A stretch of 64,000 nt of DNA from a virus (IMGVR_UViG_3300032233_002382:64001-128000), one strand, 5' to 3'; positions 1,946-19,139 are shown, counted from the first letter of the stretch. Notes: generated by a model from the sequence alone, not told the origin. Program-made: numbers and translations.

Positions 1946-2398
1946 TTATGCGGACATCATGTCATTCACGATCCCGACGCCGCAGTTAGGGTCAATTTCC
2001 CCTTCCTTCAACGCCTCATTAATCGTCTGTTCCTCTTGAACGTGCACAGCCTTTAAACAACGCTTGCATTTGAAAATATAAGGCTCGCCGTTGAACAGCT
2101 TCTCTCGATGCATCTTCCAGTCATGCTCCTGGATATCACCGGAAGTCGGATTATACCGGCGGAGCATTTCCTTCTGAACGTCTACTCCTTCGGCCGCAAG
2201 AGCCTGGTCGATCATAGCAGCGAAGGGATCTTGAGGTTTCGGGATCTCTTCCGGATTCGGCGCAGACGGAGTATCGAACTCATCTTCAGGATCCTCTGGA
2301 AGCGGGGCTGCACCGTTCGGAGCCGAAAAATCTCGTACTGGCTCTTCCTTCTTTTCTTCGATACCTAGTGCTTTATCGAGCTGGTCAAGAAATGACAT
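1946..2398 (-). CDS. Hypothetical protein with CxxC and C-terminal tag (...IVNDMMSA)
   Basis: GGAGG RBS; upstream promoter-like motif; acidic low-complexity N-terminus; CKRC. Confidence 0.75.
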   Translation of the reverse strand: MSFLDQLDKALGIEEKKEEPVRDFSAPNGAAPLPEDPEDEFDTPSAPNPEEIPKPQDPFAAMIDQALAAEGVDVQKEMLRRYNPTSGDIQEHDWKMHREKLFNGEPYIFKCKRCLKAVHVQEEQTINEALKEGEIDPNCGVGIVNDMMSA

Positions 2399-2423
2399 TT
2401 AGCCTCCGCAGACGGACGCGCCG

Positions 2424-2457
2424 CCCAGACGAGCGACGGGCGGCGCGTCCGGTTTCC
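2424..2457 (-). promoter_or_regulatory. Promoter-like motif variant (GGAAACC-N12-CGTC-N5-TCTGGG)
   Basis: Conserved spacing; embedded in a GC hairpin just upstream of 1946..2398. Confidence 0.55.
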
Positions 2458-2471
2458 GATTTACTTCATAA

Positions 2472-3107
2472 TTACTCTTCCATGACCATTCCGGCGAGTA
2501 CCATCCCAAAACCATCCTTAACGTCCTGGTCCGTCAGCTCAGGCTTATTCAGGAGCTCCTTCTGGATTTTCTTCCAGAGACGCTCTCCGCCCCAAGTATT
2601 CGCCTTCGCCCACCTCTGGTGTTCCTCAGCAAGTTTTTCGATCGAATCAATGTCTCCAAGGAAGGTGTGCGGGGTCGGCTTTACGATAGTGCGTCCGCCA
2701 TAAGCCTGAGGATTCTTGAGCTGGAACTGATAGTGGTTTTCTTCGGACTGGTTCTTTAGGTCGATTTCCTCTCGGAGGCGATTGATTCGAATCGCCACCA
2801 TCTTAGCAAGAGTCTTCTGTGTGACTTTGCCCTTGATCTTAGGCTGGGCATTTTCGATGAGGGGCCTTACTTCGTGTATTGGTTTACGGAAATAGGCAAG
2901 CGCTTGCGGAATCTTCACGAAAGTCAAGTAAAAATCTGACTCAATGGCGCCGTCGGCGTCAGCTTCCTTCCAAGTCCGGATGATAACGTCCGAATCGCCA
3001 GTCACTCGGACCTGATCCGAACTTGCCTTAATGTCAGCTCGTGCGCCTTGGTCACACTTAGCGATCGCCAGGGCATCCAACTGCGGATCGTGGTAGATTG
3101 GCATCAA
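2472..3107 (-). CDS. Hypothetical protein with C-terminal tag (...LAGMVMEE)
   Basis: GGAGG RBS; motif upstream; 211 aa. Confidence 0.75.
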   Translation of the reverse strand: MMPIYHDPQLDALAIAKCDQGARADIKASSDQVRVTGDSDVIIRTWKEADADGAIESDFYLTFVKIPQALAYFRKPIHEVRPLIENAQPKIKGKVTQKTLAKMVAIRINRLREEIDLKNQSEENHYQFQLKNPQAYGGRTIVKPTPHTFLGDIDSIEKLAEEHQRWAKANTWGGERLWKKIQKELLNKPELTDQDVKDGFGMVLAGMVMEE

Positions 3108-3127
3108 GCCTCCGTGCGCGGGAATCG

Positions 3128-3161
3128 CGCACCAACAAAACGGACAAGGCGCCCGACTTCC
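3128..3161 (-). promoter_or_regulatory. Promoter-like motif copy (GGAAGTC-N12-CGTT-N5-GGTGCG)
   Basis: Conserved spacing; intergenic; followed by a small hairpin and RBS. Confidence 0.65.
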
Positions 3162-3169
3162 GATATGCT

Positions 3170-3505
3170 TTAGGCAGAACTCACGACGTAAACTGACTCT
3201 TCCATGTAAGACACGTTATTGAGGATGTTTTCCTGGGCATTACTTACTTTGTGCTTAACCGCTTCAATGAGAGCGCATCCAATTGCCATTGAGAGACTCT
3301 CGAATGCACCGAGGTCTTCGTGGTCCATCTCCCATCCTGTGTCGTCATCATAGTACCCGTTGATTTGCGAGACCACCCATTTCTCGTCCACACGATCAAT
3401 GTCGAGGCCGTCGACTTCAAGGTGGTTAGCGTCAACGACCTTGATCTCGGAATTCGGAAATCGCTTCGTGAAAACGTCGATCGCTTCGGTTTCATCAGTG
3501 TTCAT
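3170..3505 (-). CDS. Hypothetical protein
   Basis: ORF 3170..3799; AGGAG before Met at 3505 (MNTDETE); the upstream part overlaps motif copies, so the start was shortened. Confidence 0.65.
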   Translation of the reverse strand: MNTDETEAIDVFTKRFPNSEIKVVDANHLEVDGLDIDRVDEKWVVSQINGYYDDDTGWEMDHEDLGAFESLSMAIGCALIEAVKHKVSNAQENILNNVSYMEESVYVVSSA

Positions 3506-3525
3506 TGGCATCTCCTGGTAAGTCG

Positions 3526-3559
3526 ACCACATTATCAACGAGGGAAGCGGCCGATTTCC
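3526..3559 (-). promoter_or_regulatory. Promoter-like motif variant (GGAAATC-N12-CGTT-N5-TGTGGT), half of a divergent set
   Basis: Conserved spacing; faces 3170..3505. Confidence 0.55.
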
Positions 3560-3580
3560 GACATTCTTCAAAGTAAATAC

Positions 3581-3678
3581 GGAAATCGGAGAGGTCGTCG
3601 CGTCTCTTTGGTGGATCAACCAAATCTCTAATCTAAAGAGCGCTGGAAGTGCGGCGCTGTTGCCGTCCTGTTGCCGGA
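3581..3678 (+). promoter_or_regulatory. Two tandem motif variants (GGAAATC-N13-CGTC at 3581; GGAAGTG-N12-CGTC at 3645)
   Basis: Both face 3689..4315, divergent from the copy at 3526..3559. Confidence 0.5.
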
Positions 3679-3688
3679 GGTGCCACAT

Positions 3689-4315
3689 ATGGGGAAGTCG
3701 AGTTTTGAGAAGATTACTGACGCGCTTTACGAAACGGGCGAGTTCAAGTCGCTCATGATTGAGATAAAGGAACGAATCCAGTCGACCAAGATTACGCATT
3801 ATGCCGGTGCGTGCAATTCATATGACCCGAAGGCTACGCTGATGGTTCATATGGAGACCGAGTACTGCGGCAAGAAGAATGAGGCTGCCAGCAACGTCGG
3901 TAACATGAAGACGAATCCGTTCTGGACGATCTCCCGTGATCTATACCTGCCAGACTCATTCAAGGCGATTTTTAACGCGAATTTCGGTGTACTGAAGCCG
4001 AACTCGACAAAGAAATATCGCGTCCCGACATACAACGTGAAGCGAGACAAGGCGTACGAACACTTTGCATCCAATGCAAGGGGCAAAATTGCGGTTGAAT
4101 TCGACACGATGATTAAGGATAAGTCGAGTCAGATTCGAAACCAGGCACTTGAGTTCGACACGACTCCCATGGCGGATCAGATTAAGCAGGACACTCGAGA
4201 TCGGTTCACGATCGACTCGATTAAGGAGACTCTACTCCGCTTCAAGGACGCCAGGCCTGAGATCTTGAAGGCTGCCATGGATGAGTTCGTGTGTCATGCT
4301 ATCATGGAAAACTAG
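3689..4315 (+). CDS. Hypothetical protein with C-terminal tag (...VCHAIMEN)
   Basis: GGAGG before ATG 3689; 208 aa. Confidence 0.75.
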   Translation: MGKSSFEKITDALYETGEFKSLMIEIKERIQSTKITHYAGACNSYDPKATLMVHMETEYCGKKNEAASNVGNMKTNPFWTISRDLYLPDSFKAIFNANFGVLKPNSTKKYRVPTYNVKRDKAYEHFASNARGKIAVEFDTMIKDKSSQIRNQALEFDTTPMADQIKQDTRDRFTIDSIKETLLRFKDARPEILKAAMDEFVCHAIMEN

Positions 4316-4397
4316 TTCGGCAAGGAGTGGCTTACCCGCAATAGGGCGGATAATCCACTGTAAGTTGATAGGACTCCCATCCCACGCAAAGAGCGCC

Positions 4398-4431
4398 GGA
4401 AGTCGAGGCGGCGGCGCGTCGGTTGGGTGGG
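4398..4431 (+). promoter_or_regulatory. Promoter-like motif copy (GGAAGTC-N12-CGTC-N5-GGTGGG)
   Basis: Exact consensus; upstream of the AAA ATPase. Confidence 0.7.
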
Positions 4432-4482
4432 CGGCGCGGTGGGTGGTCCACGGCGGTCCGACCCCTTGAGGAGCGAGTAATC

Positions 4483-5583
4483 ATGCTGACTGGCATCGTT
4501 GAGATCCCGAACGACACGTACATGGACGTCCTGCGATTCAATATCCGCACGGGCGGCAATATGCTCGCCTTCGGCCAGGCCGGTATCGGCAAGACCGAGA
4601 TGGCCCAGCAGGCGGCGGTTAATGAGGGATTCGGGGTCTGCTACCTGAACCTCTCCGTCCTCGAGGCCCCCGATCTTCTTGGCCTCCCCCTCATCACCGA
4701 CGACAAGAGCGTGGATTACGCCCGACCGCGCTTCCTCCCGATCGAGGGGAAGGTCGACAAGCCGGTGGTCCTGCTCGTGGATGAGCTGGATAAGGCCAAG
4801 CCCGAGCTTCAGAATCCCCTCCTCGAGCTGTTCCAGAGCCACTCGCTCAACGGCACCAAGCTGGCGATCCAGGCCATCATCGCCACGGGTAACCTCCCCG
4901 ACGAGGGTGCCCACTCGCAGCCGGTCTCCCATGCCCTCACGAACCGGTGCAAGGTCTACAAGCTGGTGAGCGCCTTCGAGCCTTGGCGTCAGTGGGCGCA
5001 GGATTCGAATCTGAACGCATTCATCATCGGCTTCCTGAGCAAGAATCAGGAGTTCCTGAGCCGTCCTCCGGTCGAGGGTGACCCCACGGCTTACTGCCGA
5101 CCCTCTCCTCGCGCGTGGTCCCAGGCTGCCCGTGAGCTGGACCAGACCACCACCAAGGATACGGTCGACTTCCAGACCCTCCTCGTCGCTGGTCGGGTGG
5201 GTAGTGAGGCCGCAGCCAAGTTCCGCGTCTGGCTGGAGCACTACCGCATCCTCGAGCCCATCATCGATCGTCTGGTGGCGGAGGGTACCCTGCCGAATAT
5301 GGGGGAGATGACCATCGACCGCCAGCTGGTCTGCGCGATTGGTGCTGCAAGCGCGGTGGCCCAGGAGTGCCGCAAGGACGTGAAGGATAAGGCGAAGCAT
5401 CAGGAGGCCGTGAACAAGACGGCTAAGAATGTCTTCACCTGGCTCCAGAAGCTCCCCTCCGAGTTCCAGATTGCCGCAGTGAAGAGCACTCTGAACATGG
5501 AGATCATCACGAAGTACCAGCTGACGAAGATCCCTGAGGTCATGAACACCTACCTCAGCGTCCGGAAGGCCATGAAGGACTAG
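4483..5583 (+). CDS. MoxR-like AAA+ ATPase (AAA_5 type)
   Basis: Walker A GQAGIGKT, Walker B LLVDELDKA, IIATGN sensor, RxxPSPRAW; GAGGAG RBS; strongly GC3-biased codons. Confidence 0.85.
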   Translation: MLTGIVEIPNDTYMDVLRFNIRTGGNMLAFGQAGIGKTEMAQQAAVNEGFGVCYLNLSVLEAPDLLGLPLITDDKSVDYARPRFLPIEGKVDKPVVLLVDELDKAKPELQNPLLELFQSHSLNGTKLAIQAIIATGNLPDEGAHSQPVSHALTNRCKVYKLVSAFEPWRQWAQDSNLNAFIIGFLSKNQEFLSRPPVEGDPTAYCRPSPRAWSQAARELDQTTTKDTVDFQTLLVAGRVGSEAAAKFRVWLEHYRILEPIIDRLVAEGTLPNMGEMTIDRQLVCAIGAASAVAQECRKDVKDKAKHQEAVNKTAKNVFTWLQKLPSEFQIAAVKSTLNMEIITKYQLTKIPEVMNTYLSVRKAMKD

Positions 5584-5599
5584 ACCACCTGGTCCTTCG

Positions 5600-5634
5600 A
5601 CCCCACCCACCCCTCGACGAGGGGTGGGTGGGGT
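5600..5634 (+). terminator. Hairpin terminator
   Basis: accccacccacccctc/gaggggtgggtggggt stem followed by TTTT, directly after the ATPase stop. Confidence 0.7.
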
Positions 5635-5678
5635 TTTTCGGATATCTAACGTACCTTGGCAAGGTGAGTTGCACATAT

Positions 5679-5718
5679 GTTTAGGCCCCACCCAGGCGAT
5701 CCTGGGTGGGGCCTAAAC
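5679..5718. terminator. 18-bp perfect hairpin between convergent genes
   Basis: gtttaggccccacccagg-cgat-cctgggtggggcctaaac. Confidence 0.65.
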
Positions 5719-5734
5719 AGTTTTTCAATACTGA

Positions 5735-6052: not shown

Positions 6053-6088
6053 AGGTTTTCTCCCTGCAATACGTGGGTAATAAGTGAT

Positions 6089-6673
6089 TTAAATAGATAT
6101 GGAAAGAGCCGCCTCAAGATATTTCTTTCGATCGTTGAAATATTTGAGGTAATAAGCATGTTCCCAGACATCTAAAGTGAATAAAACTTTGGCGTTCACT
6201 AAAGACTGATTCTGGTGATTTTCGATCACATTGATCATTAACTGATTGGCGATCTGATCCTCGGCGAGACAGACCCAAGCGGACCCCTCAGCCTTAGTAC
6301 CAGCTTCAATGAATTGCTCTTTGAAAGACTCAACCGAACCGAAATCCTCGACCAGCCTTTCCTGAAGACCCTTCAAGATAGTGTTTGACGGATCGATACA
6401 ATTCCAGTATAAAGTGTGAAGAATGTGACCACTATAATTAAAAGCGAGATTTCTCTCAATTCCCTTTAGGTGAGTGAAATCCTTCTTCTCTCGAGCCTCT
6501 TGAAGTTGATCCAGGTTCTCATTCAAACCATCTACATATGATTGGTGGTGCTTGTCATGGTGTAAAGATAAAATTTGTTCGGGGATTATATGGCTTATAG
6601 ATTTGGGGTCAAATGGTAATGGCGGAAGGATATAACGGCTTTGGGCAGCAATACGAAAGTCATAGTCGATCAT
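6089..6673 (-). CDS. sod: Fe/Mn superoxide dismutase with short N-terminal extension
   Basis: YxLPPLPF start, HHDKHHQSYV, GHILHTLYW, GSAW and DVWEHAYY metal-ligand motifs; the metal cannot be assigned by eye. Confidence 0.93.
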   Translation of the reverse strand: MIDYDFRIAAQSRYILPPLPFDPKSISHIIPEQILSLHHDKHHQSYVDGLNENLDQLQEAREKKDFTHLKGIERNLAFNYSGHILHTLYWNCIDPSNTILKGLQERLVEDFGSVESFKEQFIEAGTKAEGSAWVCLAEDQIANQLMINVIENHQNQSLVNAKVLFTLDVWEHAYYLKYFNDRKKYLEAALSISI

Positions 6674-6782: not shown

Positions 6783-8267
6783 ATGGACTTTACCGCATCT
6801 ATTACGCGTCTGAGCGACCCTAAGAACGTTGCGACCAGCCCCCGACAGCTCAAGGATCTGAACGAAAAGATCTCGAGCACCATGACCCGTCTCTTCCGAC
6901 AGCCTGAGAACGGAGGCAATCCGTTCCTCTTCGCGCTCGCTGGCCCCAAGCCGCACGAGCTGGCTCGTGACGGGATCGATACCGCAGCGACCGATGGCAA
7001 GAAGTTCTACTGGAATCCGGACTGGCTCGAGCAGATGGATGCCGACCAAGTGGCGACCATCATGTCGCACGAGTCCTACCATGTCCTCTTCTTCCATTGC
7101 TCTCCGGAGCGGGCGGGTGGTCTGAACCCGCAGGTCTGGAACATCGCCGTCGACTACATCGTGAACGGGGTGATTATGGCCGATCACGAGAAGTCGGGTC
7201 GTTCGAAGAAGCAGCCTAAGTTGTTCTACGGGGCCATGGGCACCCCGATCTCGCTCCAGCAGTACATCGAGTGGATTGACGGCAAGCGTGACTCGCTTCC
7301 GGAGCCTGGGTGCTTCGCGGACGAGACGACTCACGGTCGAAGCCCTGAGTCGATCTACGACCAGATCCAGAAGGCCTTCATGAACAGCCCCCGTCGCTGC
7401 AAGGAGAATGCAGGTGGTTGCGGGGCGCTCTCCATCGACCCCAAGACCGGCATTTCGACGCTGGGTCCTGGCCCCTACGAGCCGGATTGCTGCCAGAAGT
7501 GCGGTGCCAAGCCGAACCAGGGGTTTGGGCCAGGGTCGCTCGACTCCCATCTCCCCTCCCAGCAGACCAAGGATGAGACCCTTGGAGATATGATGAGGGC
7601 GGCTGAGCAGACCCGTGCCATGGGTCGCGGGGATGTGCCAGGGGATATTGAGGCAGCCCTGGGTCGCCTCAAGAAGCCGGAGCTGTCTGCGCGGGATATC
7701 ATCCGTGCAGCCATCGCCCAGAAGCGACTGGATGCCGGTAATAACAATGATTGGAAGCGATTCCGTCGTCGTCCAGCATACATCTACGAGAAGGATGTGG
7801 AGGGTAACTACAAGCCCACCCACCGGCTCTACACGCCCAAGAAGCACGACTTCAAGCCGAAGTGGGTCGCGCTGATGGATACCTCTGGCTCGATGAGCGA
7901 TGATGATATCGCCAACGGGGTGAAGGAGCTGAAGATTGTGGCGGATATTGCCGAGGGTACTATCGTCCCCTGCGACACCCGCCCCTTCTGGGATAAGGCC
8001 ACCAAGGTCACGAAGGCCACCGATATCACGCGGACCAAGGTGGCTGGTCGTGGAGGCACCGTCTTCGAGCAGTTCTTCCGTGAGCTTCCGAAGCAGGCTT
8101 GCGGTCAGGAAGTGGACCTTGTAATCATCATCACCGACGGCGACTGTGATCAGGTTCCGGTGAATCTGATGCCCAAGGGGGCCGATACCCTGTGGATCAT
8201 CACGAACAAGCGGGAGTTTAAGCCGAATTTCGGACGGGTTTGCCAGCTCCGTCCCTCCCACGCGTAA
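6783..8267 (+). CDS. DUF2201-like putative metallopeptidase + vWA domain protein (MoxR partner)
   Basis: TAATDG..FYWNP, HESYH (HExxH), WNIAVDYIVN; C-terminal MIDAS DTSGSM, GRGGT.F, IIITDG; Cys-rich insert. Confidence 0.85.
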   Translation: MDFTASITRLSDPKNVATSPRQLKDLNEKISSTMTRLFRQPENGGNPFLFALAGPKPHELARDGIDTAATDGKKFYWNPDWLEQMDADQVATIMSHESYHVLFFHCSPERAGGLNPQVWNIAVDYIVNGVIMADHEKSGRSKKQPKLFYGAMGTPISLQQYIEWIDGKRDSLPEPGCFADETTHGRSPESIYDQIQKAFMNSPRRCKENAGGCGALSIDPKTGISTLGPGPYEPDCCQKCGAKPNQGFGPGSLDSHLPSQQTKDETLGDMMRAAEQTRAMGRGDVPGDIEAALGRLKKPELSARDIIRAAIAQKRLDAGNNNDWKRFRRRPAYIYEKDVEGNYKPTHRLYTPKKHDFKPKWVALMDTSGSMSDDDIANGVKELKIVADIAEGTIVPCDTRPFWDKATKVTKATDITRTKVAGRGGTVFEQFFRELPKQACGQEVDLVIIITDGDCDQVPVNLMPKGADTLWIITNKREFKPNFGRVCQLRPSHA

Positions 8268-8276
8268 GATAACCCT

Positions 8277-8313
8277 ATCCCACCCAGGCATCACTACGAT
8301 GCCTGGGTGGGAT
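8277..8313 (+). terminator. Hairpin terminator
   Basis: atcccacccaggcatc/gatgcctgggtgggat 16-bp stem after the vWA stop. Confidence 0.65.
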
Positions 8314-8333
8314 CTTTCGTATTTAGGTGACAC

Positions 8334-8645
8334 ATGCCGAAAGATACTAAGAAGTACACGGAAAAGGAACGGGCAGCCGCGATTCAGAAGATGTATCGGT
8401 TCTTGACGGACAAGCATCAGAACCATAGTTGGGTGTTCCGTCCAGGCAGAGACCCGATTTTCACTCGGACTAAGTCACCGCAGGATCTCTACAATCTCAT
8501 CCAGATGTTCTTCTACCATGAGCATGAGATTAAAGCACTTTCTAAGTGGGCCAATACCCACAAGCGGGCCTTTAAAGAGTTGAAGCCTGAGGACTATAAG
8601 GCAGTCCAGGATCTATTTGCCGTCGAAGCCGTTCACGAGTCTTAA
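8334..8645 (+). CDS. Hypothetical protein with C-terminal tag (...AVEAVHES)
   Basis: AGGTG RBS; 103 aa. Confidence 0.75.
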   Translation: MPKDTKKYTEKERAAAIQKMYRFLTDKHQNHSWVFRPGRDPIFTRTKSPQDLYNLIQMFFYHEHEIKALSKWANTHKRAFKELKPEDYKAVQDLFAVEAVHES

Positions 8646-8649
8646 ATAA

Positions 8650-8685
8650 CTTGAGGGCCCTGGGATTCGTTCCAGGGCCCTCAAG
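8650..8685. terminator. Hairpin between convergent genes
   Basis: cttgagggccctgg/ccagggccctcaag stem. Confidence 0.65.
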
Positions 8686-8716
8686 CGAGCGGGTAGCGAC
8701 TTCGAACTAGTTTACA

Positions 8717-9400
8717 CTAGAAGGAATAGTCTACCACCGTAAACTCTTCCGCCTCGCCAGCGCGGCAACCGCACGCGCAATCGGGCGGACAGTGGCAGGT
8801 GCCAGCTCCGCACGCCTCACAGCCGCACGAACAGGCGGGAGCGACAGCGTGCGACGGCGCATGGTCGTGCACCGTCGGCATCGACCCCTTGGACTTCTCG
8901 CCCATAATATAACGTTTGGCTTTAGCGACACGGTCTGCAGCTTCAGACAGACACTGATCTACCCACTGAGGTAGGTCGTCACAATTGTTCATGAGCTGCA
9001 TTATTTCCATGACGTCGTGCATCATGGTTACCGTGTTTGAATAAGCCATGTATGATACTGGAAAGACCCCAGGATGCTCTTCGATCACCACGTTCGGATC
9101 TAGAAGGACAGTAGGAGCCATACCAGAAGTACTGGAACGCTTCTTACCAAACCCATCAGATAATCTCTCGGCCACTTCGAGAGCCATGGCACCTGGTCCT
9201 CGATGTTTGATGTAGCTAAGCTGAGTTTTAACGTCAGTGGGCTTGTGAACCAAAACACCACCTTGCTTTTCGAATTCATCTGGCTTTACATGAAGTTCCA
9301 AAGCTCGTACATTTTTACTCTTATTTACTACTTTAACAATATCATCGATTATCTTTTTAATATTTTCATCTGCAGACATACGATAGTCATAATTAGACAT
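8717..9400 (-). CDS. Hypothetical protein with DYRMSA leader and metallothionein-like Cys-rich tail
   Basis: GGAGG before ATG 9400 (MSNYDYRMSA); tail CSCGCEACGAGTCHCPPDCACGC. Confidence 0.75.
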   Translation of the reverse strand: MSNYDYRMSADENIKKIIDDIVKVVNKSKNVRALELHVKPDEFEKQGGVLVHKPTDVKTQLSYIKHRGPGAMALEVAERLSDGFGKKRSSTSGMAPTVLLDPNVVIEEHPGVFPVSYMAYSNTVTMMHDVMEIMQLMNNCDDLPQWVDQCLSEAADRVAKAKRYIMGEKSKGSMPTVHDHAPSHAVAPACSCGCEACGAGTCHCPPDCACGCRAGEAEEFTVVDYSF

Positions 9401-9510: not shown

Positions 9511-10278
9511 ATGCTACTGAGTGAGATGGACGCATCTGATGCCGCCAAAGAAGTGCTCAAGTCTGAGAAAATTCATAAGCTTGGGAGCGAATCTGATCAA
9601 GAGCATGAAGAGAAGGTGGCTCAGATCCACAACGATGTCGCAAGGATTATCGAATTTATTCGGAATGCGAAGATTACTTCCACAGAAATCAAAGCAAATC
9701 GTGGTTCAAAGTATGGATCACTGATTTCGAATCAGTATCCTGGTGTCTACATCCATCAAATCATCACGCTATCTGATGGAAAGCACAAGTACTCAGTAAA
9801 TAATCCCGAATTAATCGCAAAGACTGACTATGCGGACCAGAACAAGATAGTTCCATCAAGTTTCTTCGGGATTTGGGGTGATAAAAGAGTATACCTGAGC
9901 GACCGCTCCCTGTCTCGAATGACCAAAGCCGCTCCGAATCTTGTTAATCTATATCGAAGTGCTCTTGAGATTCGTTTGGGGTTTACGCAGGAAATTGCCG
10001 AACAAGCCGCAGACAAGTATGTGAATAAGAACCAAGGGCGCGCAAAGGCTCAGATTATTAAGAAGATGGGTGGCTTCCTTGCCGAATGCAATCTCAAAGA
10101 TGAGGACCCGGAGTTCCTTCTCCAGATCATGAAGTTCATCTCTCGAGACAACTTCTGGGAGATGAAGAATTTCTTCAATTACTGTCGACGAAATCGTGGT
10201 GATATCAATTTTCTGACACCCGATGAAGTGATCCAGGCTCAAAATCTTGCTAAGGCGATTGAAATCCAGAAGTCCTAA
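9511..10278 (+). CDS. Hypothetical protein with C-terminal tag (...KAIEIQKS)
   Basis: 255-aa ORF downstream of the motif. Confidence 0.75.
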   Translation: MLLSEMDASDAAKEVLKSEKIHKLGSESDQEHEEKVAQIHNDVARIIEFIRNAKITSTEIKANRGSKYGSLISNQYPGVYIHQIITLSDGKHKYSVNNPELIAKTDYADQNKIVPSSFFGIWGDKRVYLSDRSLSRMTKAAPNLVNLYRSALEIRLGFTQEIAEQAADKYVNKNQGRAKAQIIKKMGGFLAECNLKDEDPEFLLQIMKFISRDNFWEMKNFFNYCRRNRGDINFLTPDEVIQAQNLAKAIEIQKS

Positions 10279-10676: not shown

Positions 10677-10963
10677 ACTTCTACATTGGCGTGATCTCTG
10701 AAGCCGACAACTTCGATTTAAACATCAAGTACCTTGATACGATTTATACGTCGAGGGAAGCGAACATCGCCAAGAAATACTACGACTCCCTGAATGAAAA
10801 AGATAAGAAGTGGTTTGAACGGTTATCTTTCGACAGTATGATGTGGTGGAGTCGGGCGTTCGTTGATGGAATTAAGAAGACCCCGAAGGAATTGAAAAAG
10901 GAACGGGGTGACTTGATGAGAGCAAAGAGGGAGGCCAAACGTGCCGCACAAATTCGCAGTTGA
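10673..10963 (+). CDS. Hypothetical protein
   Basis: ATGA overlap with the previous gene; 96 aa. Confidence 0.7.
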   Translation: MNFYIGVISEADNFDLNIKYLDTIYTSREANIAKKYYDSLNEKDKKWFERLSFDSMMWWSRAFVDGIKKTPKELKKERGDLMRAKREAKRAAQIRS

Positions 10964-11645
10964 TAATGGCTCGACCGACACTGAAATCGAACAAGCGATG
11001 GACCATATCCGGCATACGATCGAACTAGGCCGTCAAGCCGAATTAGCATTAATCAATATTGAGAGACAGGGATATCACAACGGCGACATCACGGTAGTTG
11101 TTGATCCGAATACTAAGACCTATCACGGTGCTCTTAGGAATCTTCGCCTAGCCAAGTACATTGAGCCGACTCGTGATAAGGCTCCATCTTTTGCCGACCT
11201 AAGTGTGACTTGCGGGAGAATGATGGAAGATTCTCACGGCGGTCATTATTTCAAGAGCTGCGAAGTGACCTTAAGCGGAACTCGAGTGAATCAGATTGAG
11301 GGAAAGCTCGTGAACGAGCCATTTTCCATCATCATGGGGAATCTGAGGCTTAAGAAGACCGGACTTTCGATCGAGCTGAAGCATGAACAGTACTACAACC
11401 GATACGACGTAGCTCAGGTATACAAGAAGCCGACGGGATCTTCCATGTCGTCTTATAGAGAGATTGCCAAGTGCGTTGCGGATCATGTGGTGTCGATCGC
11501 AAATAGTTATCATGATCCAGAATTGCAGATTACGCACGATCTTCGGATGAAAGCCCGAGAGTGGTTGGTTTCGGAAGGTGTCATTCAGCGTCTCTCCACG
11601 AGTCTTTTCGAGCAAGCCAAGATTGTTGAGGTGATGAATGCGTAG
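10941..11645 (+). CDS. Hypothetical protein with C-terminal tag (...KIVEVMNA); start uncertain
   Basis: 234-aa ORF in operon. Confidence 0.7.
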   Translation: MPHKFAVDNGSTDTEIEQAMDHIRHTIELGRQAELALINIERQGYHNGDITVVVDPNTKTYHGALRNLRLAKYIEPTRDKAPSFADLSVTCGRMMEDSHGGHYFKSCEVTLSGTRVNQIEGKLVNEPFSIIMGNLRLKKTGLSIELKHEQYYNRYDVAQVYKKPTGSSMSSYREIAKCVADHVVSIANSYHDPELQITHDLRMKAREWLVSEGVIQRLSTSLFEQAKIVEVMNA

Positions 11646-12144
11646 CAGTACTACCCTTCATTATCATAACCTGCCTCAAGCCATCAGTGTAATCAAATCG
11701 GCAAAAGTATCCTCAGCCGGTTCTACCCTAAAGGGTAATTCGATTCAAGTAAGGGTTAAGTTTACGAATACGATGGGTCAGCCGTCGATCGGATATTTTT
11801 CGATCAATTCGAGTCGTATTTCAGACTACAAATTCTACGACCCTGGGTTTATGCGAAAATGCTTTCGAATGTCTGCAATCGGGTCGGCTGCTCGAAACCA
11901 GTATGATGACTGGGTTAAGGGAAATCCGGTCGAATTGCGTAGACTTCAGAAAGAAATCCTCGATGCGGCTAAGAAAGAATACTCAGAGGGTGAAGCCACT
12001 AGGCGCAAAAACGAAGCAGTTGTTGCTAAGTGCCGAAAGGCGCTTTCCGAGTGGATGATCCATTCCTTCAAGCACGGGATTGAGCAGGAGGAGATTCTAG
12101 ATATCATGAGGGAGTCGCTCATCAAGTCTACGATGTCCGAGTGA
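11638..12144 (+). CDS. Hypothetical protein with C-terminal tag (...LIKSTMSE)
   Basis: Overlapping start; 168 aa. Confidence 0.7.
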   Translation: MRSSTTLHYHNLPQAISVIKSAKVSSAGSTLKGNSIQVRVKFTNTMGQPSIGYFSINSSRISDYKFYDPGFMRKCFRMSAIGSAARNQYDDWVKGNPVELRRLQKEILDAAKKEYSEGEATRRKNEAVVAKCRKALSEWMIHSFKHGIEQEEILDIMRESLIKSTMSE

Positions 12145-12217: not shown

Positions 12218-12838
12218 ATGGCGAATCCGGTTCTTCTTGCGAAGTTTACAAATCCTGGTCCGGTTGCGAATGCGTTCATTAAGGAATGGAACGAGTATTT
12301 TAAGGGTTCTAAGTACGTCGGGCATGGTGCTAGTAAGACCGGTACCACCGCTTATGCGAAATTCTCCATTCCGGCTGTGAATAAGTTCAAGCTTTGTAAG
12401 GTTTCGATCCGAGTCCGCTATCATAGCAAACCGAGCGGAGTGTCTATCACTTCAGATGTGTGGGAGGCCTGGGCCAAACTCCGTGTCGAGAAGATCACGG
12501 ACGGGGCGAGAAGTCGGAACATGTTCTACGATTGGACACGCAATTACACGGGAGAGTCCTCTCTATCTAAGCTGTTCAATGAGACCGGTGCCAATGGACA
12601 CCAAGATCTATATGAAGCATTCTTTACGGCAGTCGGATTCATGCCGGAGTTAGATAAGGCTGCAAAGGATGTCGCCTCATCATCAACCGTCGAAGAGAAA
12701 AAGAAGATTCACGAAGTCAAGAGCGCGCTTTTTGACATTCGTGCACCTCTGCGTACTCTCCTCCGACACGGCATTGAAACTGAACAGTTGCATGAGATGA
12801 TCAATCACGAAATCGTGGATCTAATCACCGATGGATGA
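12218..12838 (+). CDS. Hypothetical protein with C-terminal tag (...IVDLITDG)
   Basis: GGAGGTG RBS; 206 aa. Confidence 0.75.
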   Translation: MANPVLLAKFTNPGPVANAFIKEWNEYFKGSKYVGHGASKTGTTAYAKFSIPAVNKFKLCKVSIRVRYHSKPSGVSITSDVWEAWAKLRVEKITDGARSRNMFYDWTRNYTGESSLSKLFNETGANGHQDLYEAFFTAVGFMPELDKAAKDVASSSTVEEKKKIHEVKSALFDIRAPLRTLLRHGIETEQLHEMINHEIVDLITDG

Positions 12839-13184
12839 AGCCAAGATTAAGGAAGTCATCACCGAGTTCGAAGGTTACCCAAAAGAATATAAGGATCAGA
12901 TGCTACAGAGGTGGTGGGAAATTAGCCCATATCTGGACAATAAGTCCGACATGCTAGCCAAGACTTTATCTTGGATTGCGTACGCCTTTAACCATAAAGA
13001 AGAGTATTGGTGGTCTAGGGAAGCAATTTGGTTTCTGCACAAGAATGATCCTGAAGTATCCGTGTATGCTCTGGTTGATCAGTATGGGTATGATTGGAAG
13101 AACACAGTAATGCCGCAATTAAAGCCAGTGTTTGAAGTGATTGCTCACCCCAGCTTACTTGTCGGTGGAATTCACGGTTCCTGA
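12831..13184 (+). CDS. Hypothetical protein
   Basis: Overlapping start; 117 aa; aromatic-rich. Confidence 0.7.
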   Translation: MDEAKIKEVITEFEGYPKEYKDQMLQRWWEISPYLDNKSDMLAKTLSWIAYAFNHKEEYWWSREAIWFLHKNDPEVSVYALVDQYGYDWKNTVMPQLKPVFEVIAHPSLLVGGIHGS

Positions 13185-14365: not shown

Positions 14366-14449
14366 TGATCTCCCGTTCAGGTTCTACCGTAACAATACGG
14401 CTTAACAATGGTTCCCATTTACATTCTAAGATCTCGAAAGAGGGTCAAT

Positions 14450-14950
14450 ATGGCAGAGGATGGGTACTGGGCAAAGCAATTCCGTGATGGGGCACCCGAG
14501 GCAGTTGCGAAGTCATGGTTGAGCTCTGGCAATCATCAGAATCGAGTCTTGCACCACATCGGTCAAATAGGGATCGATAGACTAGTAGAAAAGACCCAGG
14601 GATCTTGGAAGCGTGAAAATCTGGCTAAAGCAGTGATCGAAGACATGAAGTTGGTACCAGAGATCATCAGGGATATTCAAAGCAGTAGCAATTTTGTCAT
14701 GGGGCCTATTTTATCGGGCCTGTCGGTTAAAGATCAGATCAGCAAGAATGATATTCAAGCCAAGATGTGGCTTGACAAGAGCCCAGACCATGTGATTTTT
14801 TATGGTCCATATAGCGAGACGTTAGAGACATTTCTTATTTCTGAAGTCGGTAAGGTCATTTCGAATTCTGAATGGTTTAAAAAGAACATCAAGTCGATTC
14901 GAAGTGCAGCAGCCAAGATCAATGCAGTTAAGAAGGTAATGAACCAGTAA
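14450..14950 (+). CDS. Hypothetical protein with C-terminal tag (...AVKKVMNQ)
   Basis: GAGGG before ATG 14450. Confidence 0.7.
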   Translation: MAEDGYWAKQFRDGAPEAVAKSWLSSGNHQNRVLHHIGQIGIDRLVEKTQGSWKRENLAKAVIEDMKLVPEIIRDIQSSSNFVMGPILSGLSVKDQISKNDIQAKMWLDKSPDHVIFYGPYSETLETFLISEVGKVISNSEWFKKNIKSIRSAAAKINAVKKVMNQ

Positions 14951-15018
14951 TCTATTGTATCCATTTTGGGACAGGTACCCCAAATTCATAAACCAAGTAC
15001 CTACCATGGAGAGTTAGT

Positions 15019-15369
15019 ATGTTTAATCGTGTTCCGGTCCAGAACGACATCATGAACAACACTGTAGGTGAGACGTCTGTCGAAGGACGAATTATTCCGG
15101 TCGGTCGTGGCGGTGAAGCAATCGTGTTCGAAATTCCGATGGGGTTCTTCAAGATTGTAGCAATCGCCAACATTCCTGAGGAAGGCGCTGAGAAGGCGCC
15201 AGTCTACCTCAAGCTCAAGGTAGGCGATTTTGCGTATCAGCGGGCTCAGAATGCACAGGCTCGTGCGAATAGCCGCCGTGCCGCTCGACAGGCTCAGTAC
15301 GCAAACAATGGACATGACTCGGACGTAGATGATGGTGATTATGAAGGTGATGATTCCCATCCCGCGTAA
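15019..15369 (+). CDS. Hypothetical protein, acidic tail
   Basis: GGAG RBS; 116 aa. Confidence 0.7.
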   Translation: MFNRVPVQNDIMNNTVGETSVEGRIIPVGRGGEAIVFEIPMGFFKIVAIANIPEEGAEKAPVYLKLKVGDFAYQRAQNAQARANSRRAARQAQYANNGHDSDVDDGDYEGDDSHPA

Positions 15370-15377
15370 AGCGGCGC

Positions 15378-15411
15378 GGAAGTCTCGCGGTCGGCGCGTC
15401 CGATAGGTGGG
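15378..15411 (+). promoter_or_regulatory. Promoter-like motif copy
   Basis: GGAAGTC-tcgcggtcggcg-CGTC-cgata-GGTGGG. Confidence 0.7.
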
Positions 15412-15505
15412 CACGGGGCGCGAGTCGCGGTGGCGCGGGGATGATCTGGTGCATTGTGCACTGGACCTCCCCCGCAGCGAGCTCCCTCCCCGAATGGAGG
15501 CCCAA

Positions 15506-16177
15506 ATGCAGACGCAGAATGGTTCGGCGCTCGAGATCCTCAAGTCACTCGGTGTTTTCCAGATGGTCGCTCCCCCGCAGGTCCCTGCCGTTTCGGATCC
15601 CGCACTCTCCGGCGCGGTTCGTGAGAAGAATGTGGTCCGTCTCGGCGAGGATCCCTCGATCCAGACCAAGGCGGAGCATGCGGCTCAGCTGAAGGCGGCG
15701 CTCGAGAAGGCGCAGTCCGACTTCGAGGCCATCCAGGGTGAGATCAGGGAGTACGGCAAGGAGAAGCGGGACGCCTTCAACGACCACTTCCGGACCAACA
15801 TCACCACCGTTGCAATCCCATACGGTGATGAGAAGGCGGTGCAGGTCATTTGCGCCAACCGGTACTCGGTCAAGAAGGACATCATCCTGAACAACAAGGC
15901 GGCGTTGGGCTCGACGGTGAATGATCTTTTCACGATTGAGACCACGCGTTCGCTCAAGGCCAAGGGAGAGGACCTGCTTCGTCGGCTCCTCGTCGAGGTC
16001 GGTGTTCAGGCGAAGGACGTGGAGTTCGTCCTCAACGAGCTTACTGAGGTCGAGCACACGGTCAAGACGGTGGAGGATTACGAGCAGAAGGCCAAGCTTG
16101 TGACCGATACCGGAGTTCAGGAGATCTTGGCTCAGGCGGTCTCCCGCGCCTCCCCTGCTCTCAAGTTCGTCGGTTAG
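15506..16177 (+). CDS. Hypothetical protein with N-terminal coiled coil
   Basis: GGAGG before ATG 15506; very GC3-rich. Confidence 0.75.
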   Translation: MQTQNGSALEILKSLGVFQMVAPPQVPAVSDPALSGAVREKNVVRLGEDPSIQTKAEHAAQLKAALEKAQSDFEAIQGEIREYGKEKRDAFNDHFRTNITTVAIPYGDEKAVQVICANRYSVKKDIILNNKAALGSTVNDLFTIETTRSLKAKGEDLLRRLLVEVGVQAKDVEFVLNELTEVEHTVKTVEDYEQKAKLVTDTGVQEILAQAVSRASPALKFVG

Positions 16178-16187
16178 TTCTTAATCC

Positions 16188-16228
16188 GATGTGGGGGGAG
16201 GGGTCTAAGCGACCCCTCCCCCCACATC
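16188..16228 (+). terminator. 18-bp hairpin terminator
   Basis: gatgtggggggaggggtc/gacccctccccccacatc then TTT. Confidence 0.7.
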
Positions 16229-16244
16229 TTTCCTGGAGGTCCAT

Positions 16245-16850
16245 ATGGTCCCGAACGTTCTTGTCAGCTATGTTCCCCTATTCTATGGTCAGCCCGGAAC
16301 CATCCTTGAGAAGGATGGTGAAGTTGAAAAGACCCTTAAGGATGCCTTCGATCAGGAAGTTGGTCACTCCAAGGGAGCTGCCTGGTCTCTCGAGGAGGAT
16401 GGGTCTTCCGCCGTGACCCTGATTCTCGACAAGGCTACTGAGATTTCTAAACACTTGATGGCGTGGTCTGAGAATAAGCCGAGTGATTGGTTCACATTCC
16501 AGATCGTAAAGAATGACGGTGGTTACGCGATTGCCATCATGCCCGAAATGGAAAAGTCGATGGTGCGGTTCAAGTCGACCTACAAGGTGGCGGACGAGGA
16601 GGCGAAGTCGGTGCGAATCATCTTCCGACCGCTCACCTTCTCATCTGAGTCCGTATCAGCGCTCAATGGAGCGGAACCGAACATCAAGGACGAAATTCGG
16701 GTCTATGTGTTGGACGCCGATCTGGTGAACGAAAAGAAGTTCTCCCCGAATCATTTGAACCACCGGGTTGAATTAGGTAAGTTCAAGGTGGTTCGTGACG
16801 GTTTCGCCAAGCAGTACCTGGAAGAGATGATCGCGAGCGAAAAGAATTAG
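16245..16850 (+). CDS. Hypothetical protein
   Basis: GGAGGT RBS; 201 aa. Confidence 0.75.
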   Translation: MVPNVLVSYVPLFYGQPGTILEKDGEVEKTLKDAFDQEVGHSKGAAWSLEEDGSSAVTLILDKATEISKHLMAWSENKPSDWFTFQIVKNDGGYAIAIMPEMEKSMVRFKSTYKVADEEAKSVRIIFRPLTFSSESVSALNGAEPNIKDEIRVYVLDADLVNEKKFSPNHLNHRVELGKFKVVRDGFAKQYLEEMIASEKN

Positions 16851-16868
16851 GAAACAAGAGAAATAAGT

Positions 16869-16910
16869 AAAGTTTGGGGACTTCTCCTTCGGGGGAAGTC
16901 CCCAAACTTT
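16869..16910 (+). terminator. UUCG-capped hairpin terminator
   Basis: aaagtttggggacttctcc-ttcg-ggggaagtccccaaacttt. Confidence 0.75.
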
Positions 16911-16921
16911 TATAAGCATAT

Positions 16922-17347
16922 ATGAGTATGGATTTATTTGAAAAAATTGCTAAAAGAATCGCTTCTAACTATAAGCGGCAGCGATTTACATGTAAGGGAA
17001 ATCGTTGGAAAGTGCCGGATCTGCTTAACTTCATCAAAGAGCAGGAGATAGAGCTCGTGATGTATCCGGTCGCTCCATTATATGAAAGAGTGTCAACCTC
17101 TCCTGAAGGATACTTCGACGAGCCCTTTGAGAGCCCCGAGTTTATCGAAAGAGCCATGAAGTCCGATTACAACACCTATCCGGTCGTACTCTTTGATCTT
17201 CCAGATAAAATCCGGATCGCTGACGGAAATCACCGGGTGTATAAGGCGTTCAAGGATGGGGCAGAATTCATCCCAGCATATGTATTATCTGAAGAGCAGG
17301 TATGGCAGGCCCCGCACGCTCCCGTAGAAGAATCTGCTTCAGATTAG
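16922..17347 (+). CDS. ParB/sulfiredoxin-like domain protein with KIAKRIA leader
   Basis: PVVL....IRIADGNHRVYKA...G.EFIPAYV motif. Confidence 0.75.
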   Translation: MSMDLFEKIAKRIASNYKRQRFTCKGNRWKVPDLLNFIKEQEIELVMYPVAPLYERVSTSPEGYFDEPFESPEFIERAMKSDYNTYPVVLFDLPDKIRIADGNHRVYKAFKDGAEFIPAYVLSEEQVWQAPHAPVEESASD

Positions 17348-17476
17348 GTAATTGTTTAAAAACCAATAATTATTTTGAAAATCACCCGAATGACTCAGGG
17401 CTGGGACATGTCTTGGGTTGTATTATGACTTAACGGAAATTTCCTGAAAACTTAGTTTCTTTTATGGGAGAATCAT

Positions 17477-18775
17477 ATGATCGAAAGATACGCGCAGCCT
17501 GAGATGACTGAAATCTTCTCGGACCGGACTAAGTTAGAGCTCATGATCTCGGTTGAGAAGGCTGCCGCCTCGGCGATGGCTTACAAGGGCCTAATCCCGG
17601 TTGATGCCGAGATTGCTATCAATAACTACAAGGTCGATTTCGACGATGCGCTCCAAAGAATTCCTGAGATCGAAAAAGAGACTCGGCACGACGTCCTGGC
17701 GGTTTTGAAGTACCTAGAGTCGAAGATCGGTCCTGAGGGAAGGTACCTTCACCGAGGGATGACGAGCTCTGATGTCCAGGATACCGTTCTAGCCATACAA
17801 CTCGTCCGGGCCGGGCGGATTATCTTGAAAGAGTCCAAGATTTTGAGGGATTTCCTTAAAGAAACTGCGATCAAGTACAAGAAGACTCCGTGCGTTGGAA
17901 GATCCCACGGAATGCACGCTGAGGTAACGACGTTTGGACTCAAGGTCCTCAGCTGGCATGGCTATGTTGCCAGGGCCCTCAAATTATTTGAAACGGCTCT
18001 GTCTGAAGTCGGTTATGGGAAGATATCGGGCGCCGTCGGAACTTATGCCCATCTGAGCCCTGAAGTCGAGGAATCAGCTTTATGGCGAATGGGTTTAAAG
18101 TGCCAATACCCTTCAACGCAAATTGTGCCGAGGGATCGGATAGCTAATTTGATGGCGGCGATGGCCTCGATGGGAAATGCGATTGAAGTAATTGCCCTGG
18201 AAATCCGCCATTTATCTCGAACGGAAGTTTCAGAGGTCGCAGAATCTTTTGCAAAGGGACAAATGGGCTCGAGTGCGATGCCCCACAAGAAGAATCCGAT
18301 TGTTTCGGAACAGATGTGTGGTTTAAATAGAATCCTTAAAGGATATCTAATACCGGCCTTTGAAGACGTTCCCCTCTGGCATGAAAGAGATATCTCCCAC
18401 TCCTCTGTAGAGAGATTGATTGTTCCAGACGCATTCCATATCTTGAAATACATGATCTCAAAGACAACTGGGATGGTTTTGAATTTAGTCGTGAATTCCG
18501 AAAGGATGGAGTCTAACCTAAGGATGACTCTTGGAAATATCTTTTCGGGATCGTTATTACTTAAAGTGTCCGATCGGGTCGGGCGGGACGAGGCCTACAC
18601 GTACGTTCAGCAGTTAGTGCATACCGAGTCGACCCATTCGCTTAATTTCCGAGTGAGGAAAGACGAGAAAATTATGGGGTGGCTGACCAAGGAGGAGATT
18701 GAAGAGGTGTTCAGTATATCTCACCATCTAAGACATGTCGATGAAATATTTGACCGAGCTCTGAGAGATGGCTAA
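17477..18775 (+). CDS. purB: Adenylosuccinate lyase
   Basis: HDVLA, HRGMTSSDVQDT, GRSHGMHAE, ISGAVGT, SSAMPHKKNPIVSE signature, WHERDISHSSVER. Confidence 0.95.
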   Translation: MIERYAQPEMTEIFSDRTKLELMISVEKAAASAMAYKGLIPVDAEIAINNYKVDFDDALQRIPEIEKETRHDVLAVLKYLESKIGPEGRYLHRGMTSSDVQDTVLAIQLVRAGRIILKESKILRDFLKETAIKYKKTPCVGRSHGMHAEVTTFGLKVLSWHGYVARALKLFETALSEVGYGKISGAVGTYAHLSPEVEESALWRMGLKCQYPSTQIVPRDRIANLMAAMASMGNAIEVIALEIRHLSRTEVSEVAESFAKGQMGSSAMPHKKNPIVSEQMCGLNRILKGYLIPAFEDVPLWHERDISHSSVERLIVPDAFHILKYMISKTTGMVLNLVVNSERMESNLRMTLGNIFSGSLLLKVSDRVGRDEAYTYVQQLVHTESTHSLNFRVRKDEKIMGWLTKEEIEEVFSISHHLRHVDEIFDRALRDG

Positions 18776-19139
18776 ACCAAACATGCTTAAAATGAGTTGC
18801 ACGATTCAAGATGGGTGGGGTTATGTCGAATTTTCCAAGCGGGCCGCATATGAGACCCAAGAGCTCATAAGAGATTGTATCCACGAGCAATCTAAGTTCG
18901 GCTATGGGATGGCGACCGTTCACCGTCTTTCCCGTATGTATATGGAACTGGATAAATCCACGAACCTCGAAATGCTGTCGAGGGAAGACTTGGATTGTCT
19001 CAGGAAGTGCCTTCCGACTGTTGAAATTGAAAACCAAATGAACTGGTTCTATCGGGCGAATTTCTTTAAGCCAGATCAGGGGAAGTTCAAAGAGGCCAGT
19101 CAGATTTGCAAATCAATGTTCTCGATTCATGAGGAATAA
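18768..19139 (+). CDS. Hypothetical protein, possible C-terminal tag (...SMFSIHEE)
   Basis: Overlapping start with purB; 123 aa. Confidence 0.65.
   Translation: MAKPNMLKMSCTIQDGWGYVEFSKRAAYETQELIRDCIHEQSKFGYGMATVHRLSRMYMELDKSTNLEMLSREDLDCLRKCLPTVEIENQMNWFYRANFFKPDQGKFKEASQICKSMFSIHEE

Follow-up and report, generated by a model that had tools for sequence, protein, structure and literature searches.

The stretch of DNA analysed here, hereafter called the window, comprises 64,000 nucleotides (IMGVR_UViG_3300032233_002382:64001-128000) and corresponds to bases 64001-128000 of one linear virus record of 307,777 bp in IMG/VR, which was rated ~72% complete by CheckV. Between its positions 1,946 and 19,139 lies a series of small genes whose products end in a similar C-terminal peptide, referred to below as the tag, and interspersed with these genes are one for a MoxR-type AAA+ ATPase and one for a zincin-like metallopeptidase fused to a vWA domain. 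The original prediction, which was made from the sequence alone, stated that about ten otherwise unrelated proteins encoded within these 19 kb share a helical ending of ~19 residues. The 11 peptides quoted for it were all found in the window with a stop codon immediately after each, and the ending proved to be enriched in unbiased tests, which identifies them as true shared C-termini, with the qualification that the weak member proposed at 3170 (VVSSA) does not fit the consensus. The coordinate attached to each quoted peptide was the lowest coordinate of the gene, which equals the gene start for the plus strand only. The extent of the set turned out to be far wider than proposed: one member with the end …GGIHGS had been overlooked, a tag-like one with the end …TLHNE lies beyond 20 kb, where no such ending had been noticed, and ~24 small open reading frames (ORFs) upstream of the window as well as genes of related phages have to be added.

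All-versus-all scoring of the last 20 residues of 313 proteins yielded 104, 36 and 14 pairs at BLOSUM scores of at least 15, 20 and 25, respectively, as compared to 53, 14 and 4 pairs for internal control segments scored in the same way, and it also recovered members outside the window. When a position-specific scoring matrix seeded with the eight best tags was applied in a leave-one-out fashion, 18-21 C-termini scored above the 99.5th percentile of internal windows, where 1.6 were expected, and nearly all of these high scorers were encoded within genome positions 34-92 kb. The pattern [VIAL]..[VIL][HMQN].[SATE]$ matched 16 of the 319 called genes (0.74 expected) plus ~24 further small stop-to-stop ORFs at genome 42-61 kb that had escaped the gene caller; outside 34-92 kb, ~7 scattered matches among 2875 non-gene ORFs represent the chance level. 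With a wider pattern, V/A-x-x-[VI]-[HMQ]-x-[S/E/A]-stop, 20 matches were obtained among the 86 genes called at 34-92 kb, where 0.6 would be expected (P 1e-24), as compared to 2 among the 233 genes elsewhere in the record (1.6 expected). Most of the tagged members are located upstream of the window, at genome 34.7-64 kb.

To describe the ending, residues are counted backwards from the stop codon. Among C-termini chosen only for V/I at -4 and M/H/Q/L at -3, Ser was found at -1 in 54% and Val at -7 in 54%, as compared to 12% of the other C-termini in either case. The enrichment of -7 and -1 upon selection on -4 and -3 shows that these positions co-occur as one motif. In the same selection, the commonest residues at -1 after Ser were Ala, Glu, Thr and Gln, and no hydrophobic residue was among the top five. 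The consensus reads V/A(-7)-x-x-[V/I](-4)-[H/M/Q](-3)-x-[S/E/A](-1)-stop, with mostly Glu, Asp, Asn or Ser at -2 and Ser, Glu or Ala at -1, and in most cases further helical residues and an acidic S/T/P-x-E/D-E/D cap come before it. The data support a position-locked, protein-level and portable C-terminal module on many proteins whose bodies have no detectable similarity. In this phage, 45 or more small orphan proteins encoded in a single region carry it.

No family above the cut-offs was detected for the tagged proteins in Pfam (20 proteins), PHROGs or NCBIfam (10-20 proteins); weak rows for RepB_C, CTD11 and Usp-48 remained below these cut-offs and were disregarded. A search with a 32-position tag profile against 1.84 billion representative proteins returned one ortholog and three repeat proteins at E <= 0.001, the profile being too short to exclude the tag elsewhere. 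No paper describing the tag was found in a literature search, which is in line with the initial statement that no described phage system has this motif. The tagged genes and other features of the window are listed in Table 1.

Table 1. Genes and elements of the window mentioned in the text, in window coordinates.
Feature	Position	Strand	C-terminal end	Remarks
150-aa protein	1946..2398	-	…VNDMMSA	weak tag; Zn-knuckle-like CxxC…NCG and short helix
210-aa orphan protein	2472..3104	-	…LAGMVMEE	tag; no Pfam, PHROG or NCBIfam family
208-aa orphan protein	3689..4315	+	…FVCHAIMEN	tag; orthologs VMGE, ILET, ITDS, VMEA
MoxR-type AAA+ ATPase	4483..5583	+		Walker A GQAGIGKT, Walker B VLLVDE; possibly part of the reader
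Fe/Mn superoxide dismutase	6089-6673	-		Pfam E 1e-23 to 2e-25
Zincin-like metallopeptidase-vWA fusion	6783..8267	+		PF13203 and PF09967; HESYH; MIDAS DTSGS…TDG; candidate reader/processor
103-aa all-helical protein	8334..8645	+	…FAVEAVHES	tag
227-aa protein	8717-9400	-		dense Cys cluster
255-aa protein	9511..10278	+	…AIEIQKS	tag helix 237-254; alpha/beta N-domain and helical C-domain
Stand-alone BRCT protein, ~108 aa	10350-10676	+
234-aa orphan protein	10941..11645	+	…KIVEVMNA	tag
168-aa orphan protein	11638..12144	+	…LIKSTMSE	tag
206-aa orphan protein	12218..12838	+	…IVDLITDG	variant tag, Thr at -3
117-aa protein	12831..13184	+	…LLVGGIHGS	tag; orthologs IHGS, VQNA
166-aa orphan protein	14450..14950	+	…AVKKVMNQ	tag
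Adenylosuccinate-lyase-like protein	17477-18775	+		Lyase_1 and ADSL_C
123-aa protein	18768..19139	+	…MFSIHEE	weak tag; fits [VI]-H-x-E
76-aa protein	27403..27633	+	…IIASTLHNE	tag-like; leave-one-out score 7.5, p 0.0002
Repeated element (examples)	2457, 3161	-		promoter-like
Repeated element (examples)	4398, 6717, 9456, 10287, 12153, 13194, 15378	+		promoter-like

A DNA search of a phage collection and a first protein-pattern scan of viral contigs revealed no close relative of the phage. Among the relatives considered here are related huge-phage contigs of 193-436 kb, and individual loci are given by L numbers; homologs of the 255-aa and 103-aa proteins are confined to a few metagenome contigs. 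In a listing of sequencing runs the phage accounted for small shares only, in river, freshwater and lagoon metagenomes, and no RNA run was among those listed. At the syntenic loci the tag is dense, with 27 of 47 genes in L011 (P 2e-49), 17 of 36 in L015, 14 of 38 in L013, 14 of 43 in L020, 9 of 38 in L012 and 8 of 15 in L001. Orthologs retain it, with His and Gln being exchanged inside families (VHES/VQES, IHGS/VQNA), and in most tagged genes and their orthologs the last 20-45 residues are better conserved than the body. The relation is inverse in three of four untagged neighbours, where the body is better conserved than the last 20 residues. The orthologs of the 150-aa protein end in …SEIMKS (L012) and …SDVHSR (L014), from which we conclude that this protein is a diverged member. 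Orthologs of the 206-aa protein end in ITNG and ITEG and a distant homolog, L011_16557, in VMST, while orthologs of the 234-aa protein in five lineages end in VMNA, VMTA, ILQS, VMDS and VMGV. These data support conservation of the tag across a clade of huge phages.

The residue at -3 differs between the lineages. In the present genome it is His in 25 tags, Met in 12 and Gln in 6; the corresponding counts are M25/H1/Q1 in L011, M14/H2/Q1 in L015 and L7/M1/F1 in L012, and in L023 the residue is mostly Val. For L012 the shift is significant with a Fisher P of 4e-10, or 2e-8 when one tag per sequence cluster is counted, and it can be followed in three ortholog families, where IMEN, VMNA and TMSE of the present genome correspond to ILET, ILQS and TLDS. 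Positions -7, -4 and -1 stay constant across the lineages while -3 shifts and is homogenised inside each of them.

The bodies to which the tag is attached had been described as unrelated. The 127 tagged proteins of this genome and its relatives fell into 79 phmmer clusters, and 10 of the 3081 cluster pairs were linked by hhalign at 80% or more when the last 22 residues were trimmed, as against 24 of 3081 at full length; the profiles are shallow and often single sequences, so that missing body homology is weak evidence. After profile-profile linking, ~55 groups remained. As far as sequence comparison can tell, the description holds for the bulk of the clusters, whereas several sets show C-terminal paralogy. 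In the 103-aa protein, residues 172-255 of the 255-aa protein recur as a stand-alone copy (hhalign 96.9%, E 1.6e-10, 82 columns), and the match persisted at 88.7% after removal of the tag. The 168-aa and 206-aa proteins have 61 C-terminal residues in common (90.9%), and the 166-aa protein matched a three-gene tandem family of L011 with the ends VMNS, VMTS and VMTS (cluster 10) at 95.3%. In addition, tandem paralogs of 63-100 residues encoded on the minus strand at genome 43.5-45.3 and 56.3-60.6 kb (loci L009 and L010) represent one family with the pattern M-x-H-x-W…C…C…T-C-E-E…V-H-x-S-stop and Cys pairs in between. By hhalign this family is linked to ten other clusters, giving 11 clusters of small Zn-ribbon-like proteins. 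Since some bodies share larger C-terminal domains, the tag is, judging from these alignments, partly spread by duplication. The tag is most aptly seen as a terminal helix, belonging to small C-terminal domains, that has spread over many bodies and whose last turn is under an extra shared constraint.

An AF2 model of the 255-aa protein had a pLDDT of 82.7, and a pLDDT of ~88 for the tag helix. Searches for its fold with Foldseek against PDB and AFDB clusters and with VIA-align gave nothing significant, the best Z being 5.1 over 71 helical residues. Repeated rows for annealing proteins of the Rad52/Sak/Bet type had E values of 0.1-0.4; as these are non-significant, no fold was assigned. For the 103-aa protein AF2 gave a model of low quality (pLDDT 62.7), and the same applies to the ESM Atlas model of the 206-aa protein (pLDDT 0.47), which had no useful neighbours.

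Several observations concern the DNA around the tagged genes. An intergenic element of the form aAAtc-GGAAgTCGG-N-CGTC-N7-TGGGC, behind which come a GC-rich stretch and GGAGG-ATG, is repeated in 49 copies at genome 14-80 kb. It has a -35/-10-like spacing, resembles promoters of ECF sigma factors and is located 5' of tagged and untagged small genes alike. The idea that the tag is part of a repeated promoter cassette was rejected, because copies of the promoter without a tagged gene upstream have no motif there. In the tandem arrays, neighbouring genes overlap by ~11 nt, whereby the tag is dual-coded with the N-terminus of the next protein, and most of these genes were not called by the gene caller. 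At genome 43565 (-) and 43577 (+), two antisense ORFs with the tag endings QVHDS and MVHES face each other. Both end in a tag because GTTCATGAWTCATGAAC is palindromic, and only one of them can be a real gene. Two other explanations were also discarded, namely a prohead-protease site of the T4 type (I/L-x-E|S), since Glu is present at -2 in only ~28% of the tags, and a role of the His at -3 as zinc ligand, since close paralogs or orthologs have Gln, Met or Asn instead.

We favour the interpretation that the ending is a clade-specific C-terminal address tag that is read by one common partner, and we estimate the probability of this at about 0.5. The existence of a common reader as such appears to have a little more than an even chance. 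Such a tag would consist of the two to five turns with which an alpha-helix ends, the acidic S/T/P-x-E/D-E/D cap standing at its beginning. Its final turn would be held in constant register with the free carboxyl terminus and would have M, H or Q at -3, or L or V in other lineages. One partner would read the end of the helix together with the C-terminus, and the whole tagged set would share one fate, which could be recruitment, remodelling or processing. If one common reader co-evolves with its targets, a concerted change at -3 over dozens of otherwise unrelated proteins is to be expected, and it is not readily accounted for by plain descent or by a purely intramolecular role. The modular address label of the original prediction is supported in part, with strong evidence that the ending is register-locked, is conserved at the peptide level, occurs clade-wide and co-varies at -3 with lineage. 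It has to be qualified in that part of the spread is due to paralogy and that the helix of the one confident model does not look like a free tail.

A candidate for the reader is found among the tagged genes themselves. The genes for the MoxR ATPase and the vWA-zincin lie within the tagged cluster both in the present genome and in L011, L012, L013, L015 and L020, and in L001-L007 the gene for the 103-aa protein is located directly 3' of the peptidase gene. The HExxH and MIDAS motifs of the peptidase are intact, as are Walker A and B of the ATPase. Within the record the vWA-peptidase is present in a single copy, and it has more than 400 homologs, many of them on contigs of 240-436 kb. As a separate observation, L001 contains two copies of the vWA-metallopeptidase within 10 kb (3-449 and 7686-9191), which are 93% and 66% identical to that of the window. 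The end of the MoxR protein itself, …VRKAMKD, was tried as a tag and rejected, as the orthologs end in ALRD, SLND and AFKD, so that -3 is occupied by L or F and -4 by A or S. Three prediction runs for a complex of the vWA-peptidase, MoxR and a 32-residue tag, which had no controls, scored 0.00, 0.53 and 0.00 and speak neither for nor against binding.

The vWA domains of MoxR pairs have been proposed to capture a peptide, and zincin peptidases have been described to process small, fast-diverging proteins with a conserved C-terminal peptide, FxSxx-COOH and related (Kaur et al. 2020, PMC7159879). The vWA partners of MoxR ATPases bind their targets via the MIDAS metal, the sixth ligand of which comes from the target (PMC13036017). 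Following the logic proposed for the bacterial vWA-MoxR peptide-processing systems, the MIDAS site of the vWA domain would capture the tail, upon which the fused peptidase and the ATPase would act on the captured protein. To judge from the gene order, the MoxR/vWA-peptidase pair is the best candidate for the reader, albeit a doubtful one. A broader form of this proposal is that the MoxR AAA+/vWA-zincin machine recognises the tails and remodels or clips dozens of small accessory proteins, tag and reader having co-diversified between phage groups. We put it forward tentatively, as something that may well not hold. The co-diversified tails would be V-M-x-S, V-L-x-S and V-V-E-S in this clade, P-E-x-F-I in Vibrio phages and K-L-L-V-L-K elsewhere. 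Support comes from the cultured Vibrio phage phiKT1024 (L016), in which ~15-17 small genes, nearly all directly 3' of a homologous peptidase gene, end in …P-E-x-[FL]-[ILV]. At distant loci with peptidase homologs, K-L-L-V-L-K and D-K-Y-x-L-L-x were found in L037 (IMGVR_UViG_3300035696_000016) and N-Y-x-L-L-x in L036.

A number of observations weigh against an address tag or against this machine as its reader. When 80 IMG/VR loci with peptidase homologs were surveyed in a crude manner, most showed no shared ending; the surveyed loci all carried the peptidase, and the survey had no peptidase-free control set for comparison. No shared ending was seen either in an rV5-like coliphage with MoxR and the peptidase. 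The machine therefore does not imply tags, and L014, despite having the peptidase, contains only one to four tagged genes. For the MoxR/peptidase-vWA pair of jumbo phages, a role in virion assembly has been proposed (Iyer et al. 2021, PMC7824862). With regard to the tagged proteins, the lack of a known family means that no function anchors the set, and of the 24 full-length links between clusters, 20 are anchored at the C-terminus and cover 40-97 residues. The amphipathicity of the helices is ordinary, their mean helical moment being 0.232 as compared to 0.243 for other C-termini and 0.224 for internal windows. Lastly, in the model of the 255-aa protein the tag helix forms part of residues 175-255, which can be aligned as one block with helical domains of solved chains. 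In this model we infer no resemblance to a free tail; the helix would fit a structural role as well as a docking role.

Two alternatives manage without a reader. Conservation may reside at the nucleic-acid level, in start-stop overlaps, a ribosome-binding or termination context or a promoter cassette, with the peptide as a by-product. In favour of this, the next gene of the tandem arrays starts in the +1 frame with …VHES-stop dual-coded with the following M-N/P-H-x-W, TCATGA overlaps are frequent, GTTCATGAWTCATGAAC is palindromic, and the promoter-like element follows several tagged genes at 3-14 nt. However, the codons of the tag vary synonymously, with GTN for Val (ATH for Ile), CAT and CAC for His, CAA and CAG for Gln and TCN and AGC for Ser, which leaves third codon positions and Ser codon families free. 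The motif is equally common before intergenic gaps, 4-nt overlaps and promoters, it is missing 5' of promoter copies that lack a tagged gene upstream, and tagged genes use the same stop codons as other genes. The codon variation together with the endings kept in orthologs shows that selection acts on the peptide, and codon variation largely refutes this explanation, which we hold to be extremely improbable. Ordinary paralogy has more in its favour. Here, one or a few small ancestral genes would have been duplicated in tandem and diverged fast, the helix being the most constrained part of a domain that has no reader. The tandem arrays of 63-100-aa relatives at genome 43-45 and 56-60 kb would fit this scenario, as would the hhalign links (the 11 Zn-ribbon-like clusters, the 103/255-aa and 168/206-aa pairs) with their predominantly C-terminal anchoring, and the position of the tag helix in a well-modelled C-terminal helical stretch. 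Conversely, the tag extends over 79 sequence clusters, or ~55 groups after linking, and over architectures as different as a Zn-knuckle with a 10-residue helix, an all-helical protein and an alpha/beta domain joined to a helical one. The best-conserved part is formed by the last four residues counted from the stop and by no core position of the helix, and a structural helix gives no reason for a lineage-wide joint switch to L, V or M at -3. We thus regard paralogy as an unlikely explanation for the ending.

Two further alternatives retain a common fate and assign it to a different partner. The tag could be read by a host machine, for instance as a C-degron by which an AAA+ protease keeps these proteins short-lived, or as a motif that docks onto a host hub such as the replisome or RNA polymerase. 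C-degrons typically stand in a fixed register to the free C-terminus, ssrA and ClpXP being the established case. One temporal class is suggested by the small size and fast evolution of the tagged genes, many of which are located behind the repeated ECF-like promoter element; the lineage shifts at -3 could track different hosts, and the peptidase is also found without tags. Yet the last residues are polar (Ser or Glu, with Glu, Asp or Asn at -2) and unlike the non-polar ends of the LAA type, and the tag profile, weak as it is at 32 positions, matched nothing outside this phage clade among the 1.84 billion proteins. A host reader is accordingly improbable in our view, roughly to the same degree as paralogy. 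It is also conceivable that the tag serves packaging or ejection, directing the proteins into the capsid for delivery to the next cell. Both T4 heads and encapsulins receive cargo by way of terminal targeting peptides, which are N-terminal in T4, and many proteins are packed by huge phages. The tagged genes, however, are situated in a region of small promoter-preceded genes, no link to a shell protein or a protease was found, and ~45 different small cargo species would be unusual, which renders this possibility very slight.

Among described systems, an address tag read by the MoxR/vWA-peptidase pair would come closest to the vWA-MoxR-coupled peptide-processing systems of bacteria, for which the types FxSxx-COOH, RxD and acidic have been distinguished (Kaur, Burroughs, Iyer, Aravind 2020, PMC7159879, citing Haft and Basu 2011). 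As in those systems, the proteins are small and fast-diverging with the C-terminal peptide as the conserved part, and a zincin-like metallopeptidase and a vWA-MoxR pair are present in the neighbourhood, both here and in five relatives. In contrast, the motif V-x-x-[VI]-[MHQ]-x-S belongs to none of the FxSxx, RxD or acidic types and has no NCBIfam match, the peptidase is fused to the vWA domain, and dozens of proteins of 60-255 residues are tagged instead of one precursor. Unlike the FxSxx type, no radical-SAM protein was detected, there being no PF04055 match in the 307.8-kb record, which is ~72% complete. Moreover, the bacterial systems are conflict systems, whereas the present one belongs to a phage. 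Jumbo phages of group 2.2 have the same two-gene pair of MoxR AAA+ and metallopeptidase-vWA as found here, for which virion assembly and processing of structural proteins were proposed and no tagged protein set was mentioned (PMC7824862). The shared tail of small genes beside a homologous vWA-peptidase gene is a feature in common with phiKT1024, the tail of which ends in a hydrophobic residue and the peptidase of which is only ~25% identical.

With ssrA C-degrons of ClpXP/ClpAP the tag has in common that it is short, stands in a fixed register to the free C-terminus and would impose one fate on unrelated proteins; unlike ssrA and ClpX C-motif 1, it is helical, genome-encoded and polar at its end, with no LAA-like last three residues. 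PDZ-type ligands end in a hydrophobic residue, and none is among the five commonest last residues of the tag (Ser in 54%). The ankyrin proteins of poxviruses carry a C-terminal PRANC/F-box-like domain of ~40-50 residues that binds host Skp1, so that many variable viral proteins are connected by one C-terminal adaptor to one machine. This is an analogy of logic only, as there is no similarity in sequence or size and no Pfam match to a PRANC or F-box domain at the C-terminus of the 20 tagged proteins inspected. Encapsulation peptides of microcompartments and cargo-loading peptides of encapsulins are short terminal helices or peptides that dock unrelated proteins on one shell protein; the present tags are not markedly amphipathic, their motif is unrelated and no shell genes are known here.

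Small orphans that offer no handle make up most of the gene content of huge phages, and a tag on up to half of the genes of one region would provide one. If read by a common partner, it would group dozens of unknown proteins into one pathway, and it predicts a single reader that could be fished with a peptide and probed by altering -4, -3 and -1 or by masking the C-terminus. Should the MoxR/vWA-zincin pair be this reader, a widespread phage gene pair would gain its first substrates, and a connection would arise between phage biology and the vWA-MoxR peptide-processing systems of bacteria, which likewise await characterisation. Each phage would then possess a private addressing code for a large share of its orphan proteome. 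Since a cultured Vibrio phage has a different tail, the general idea is already open to bench tests.

Lastly, some neighbouring genes deserve mention. Between the MoxR and vWA-peptidase genes, a gene for an Fe/Mn superoxide dismutase is located on the opposite strand. The 227-aa protein with a dense cluster of Cys residues (…CSCGCEACGAGTCHCPPDCACGCRAG…) belongs to no family, and its gene adjoins tagged genes in all close relatives. An adenylosuccinate-lyase-like gene precedes that for the 123-aa protein. The stand-alone BRCT protein, another possible peptide-binding module, is kept in the syntenic region of L001, L002, L004, L011, L012, L013 and L015.

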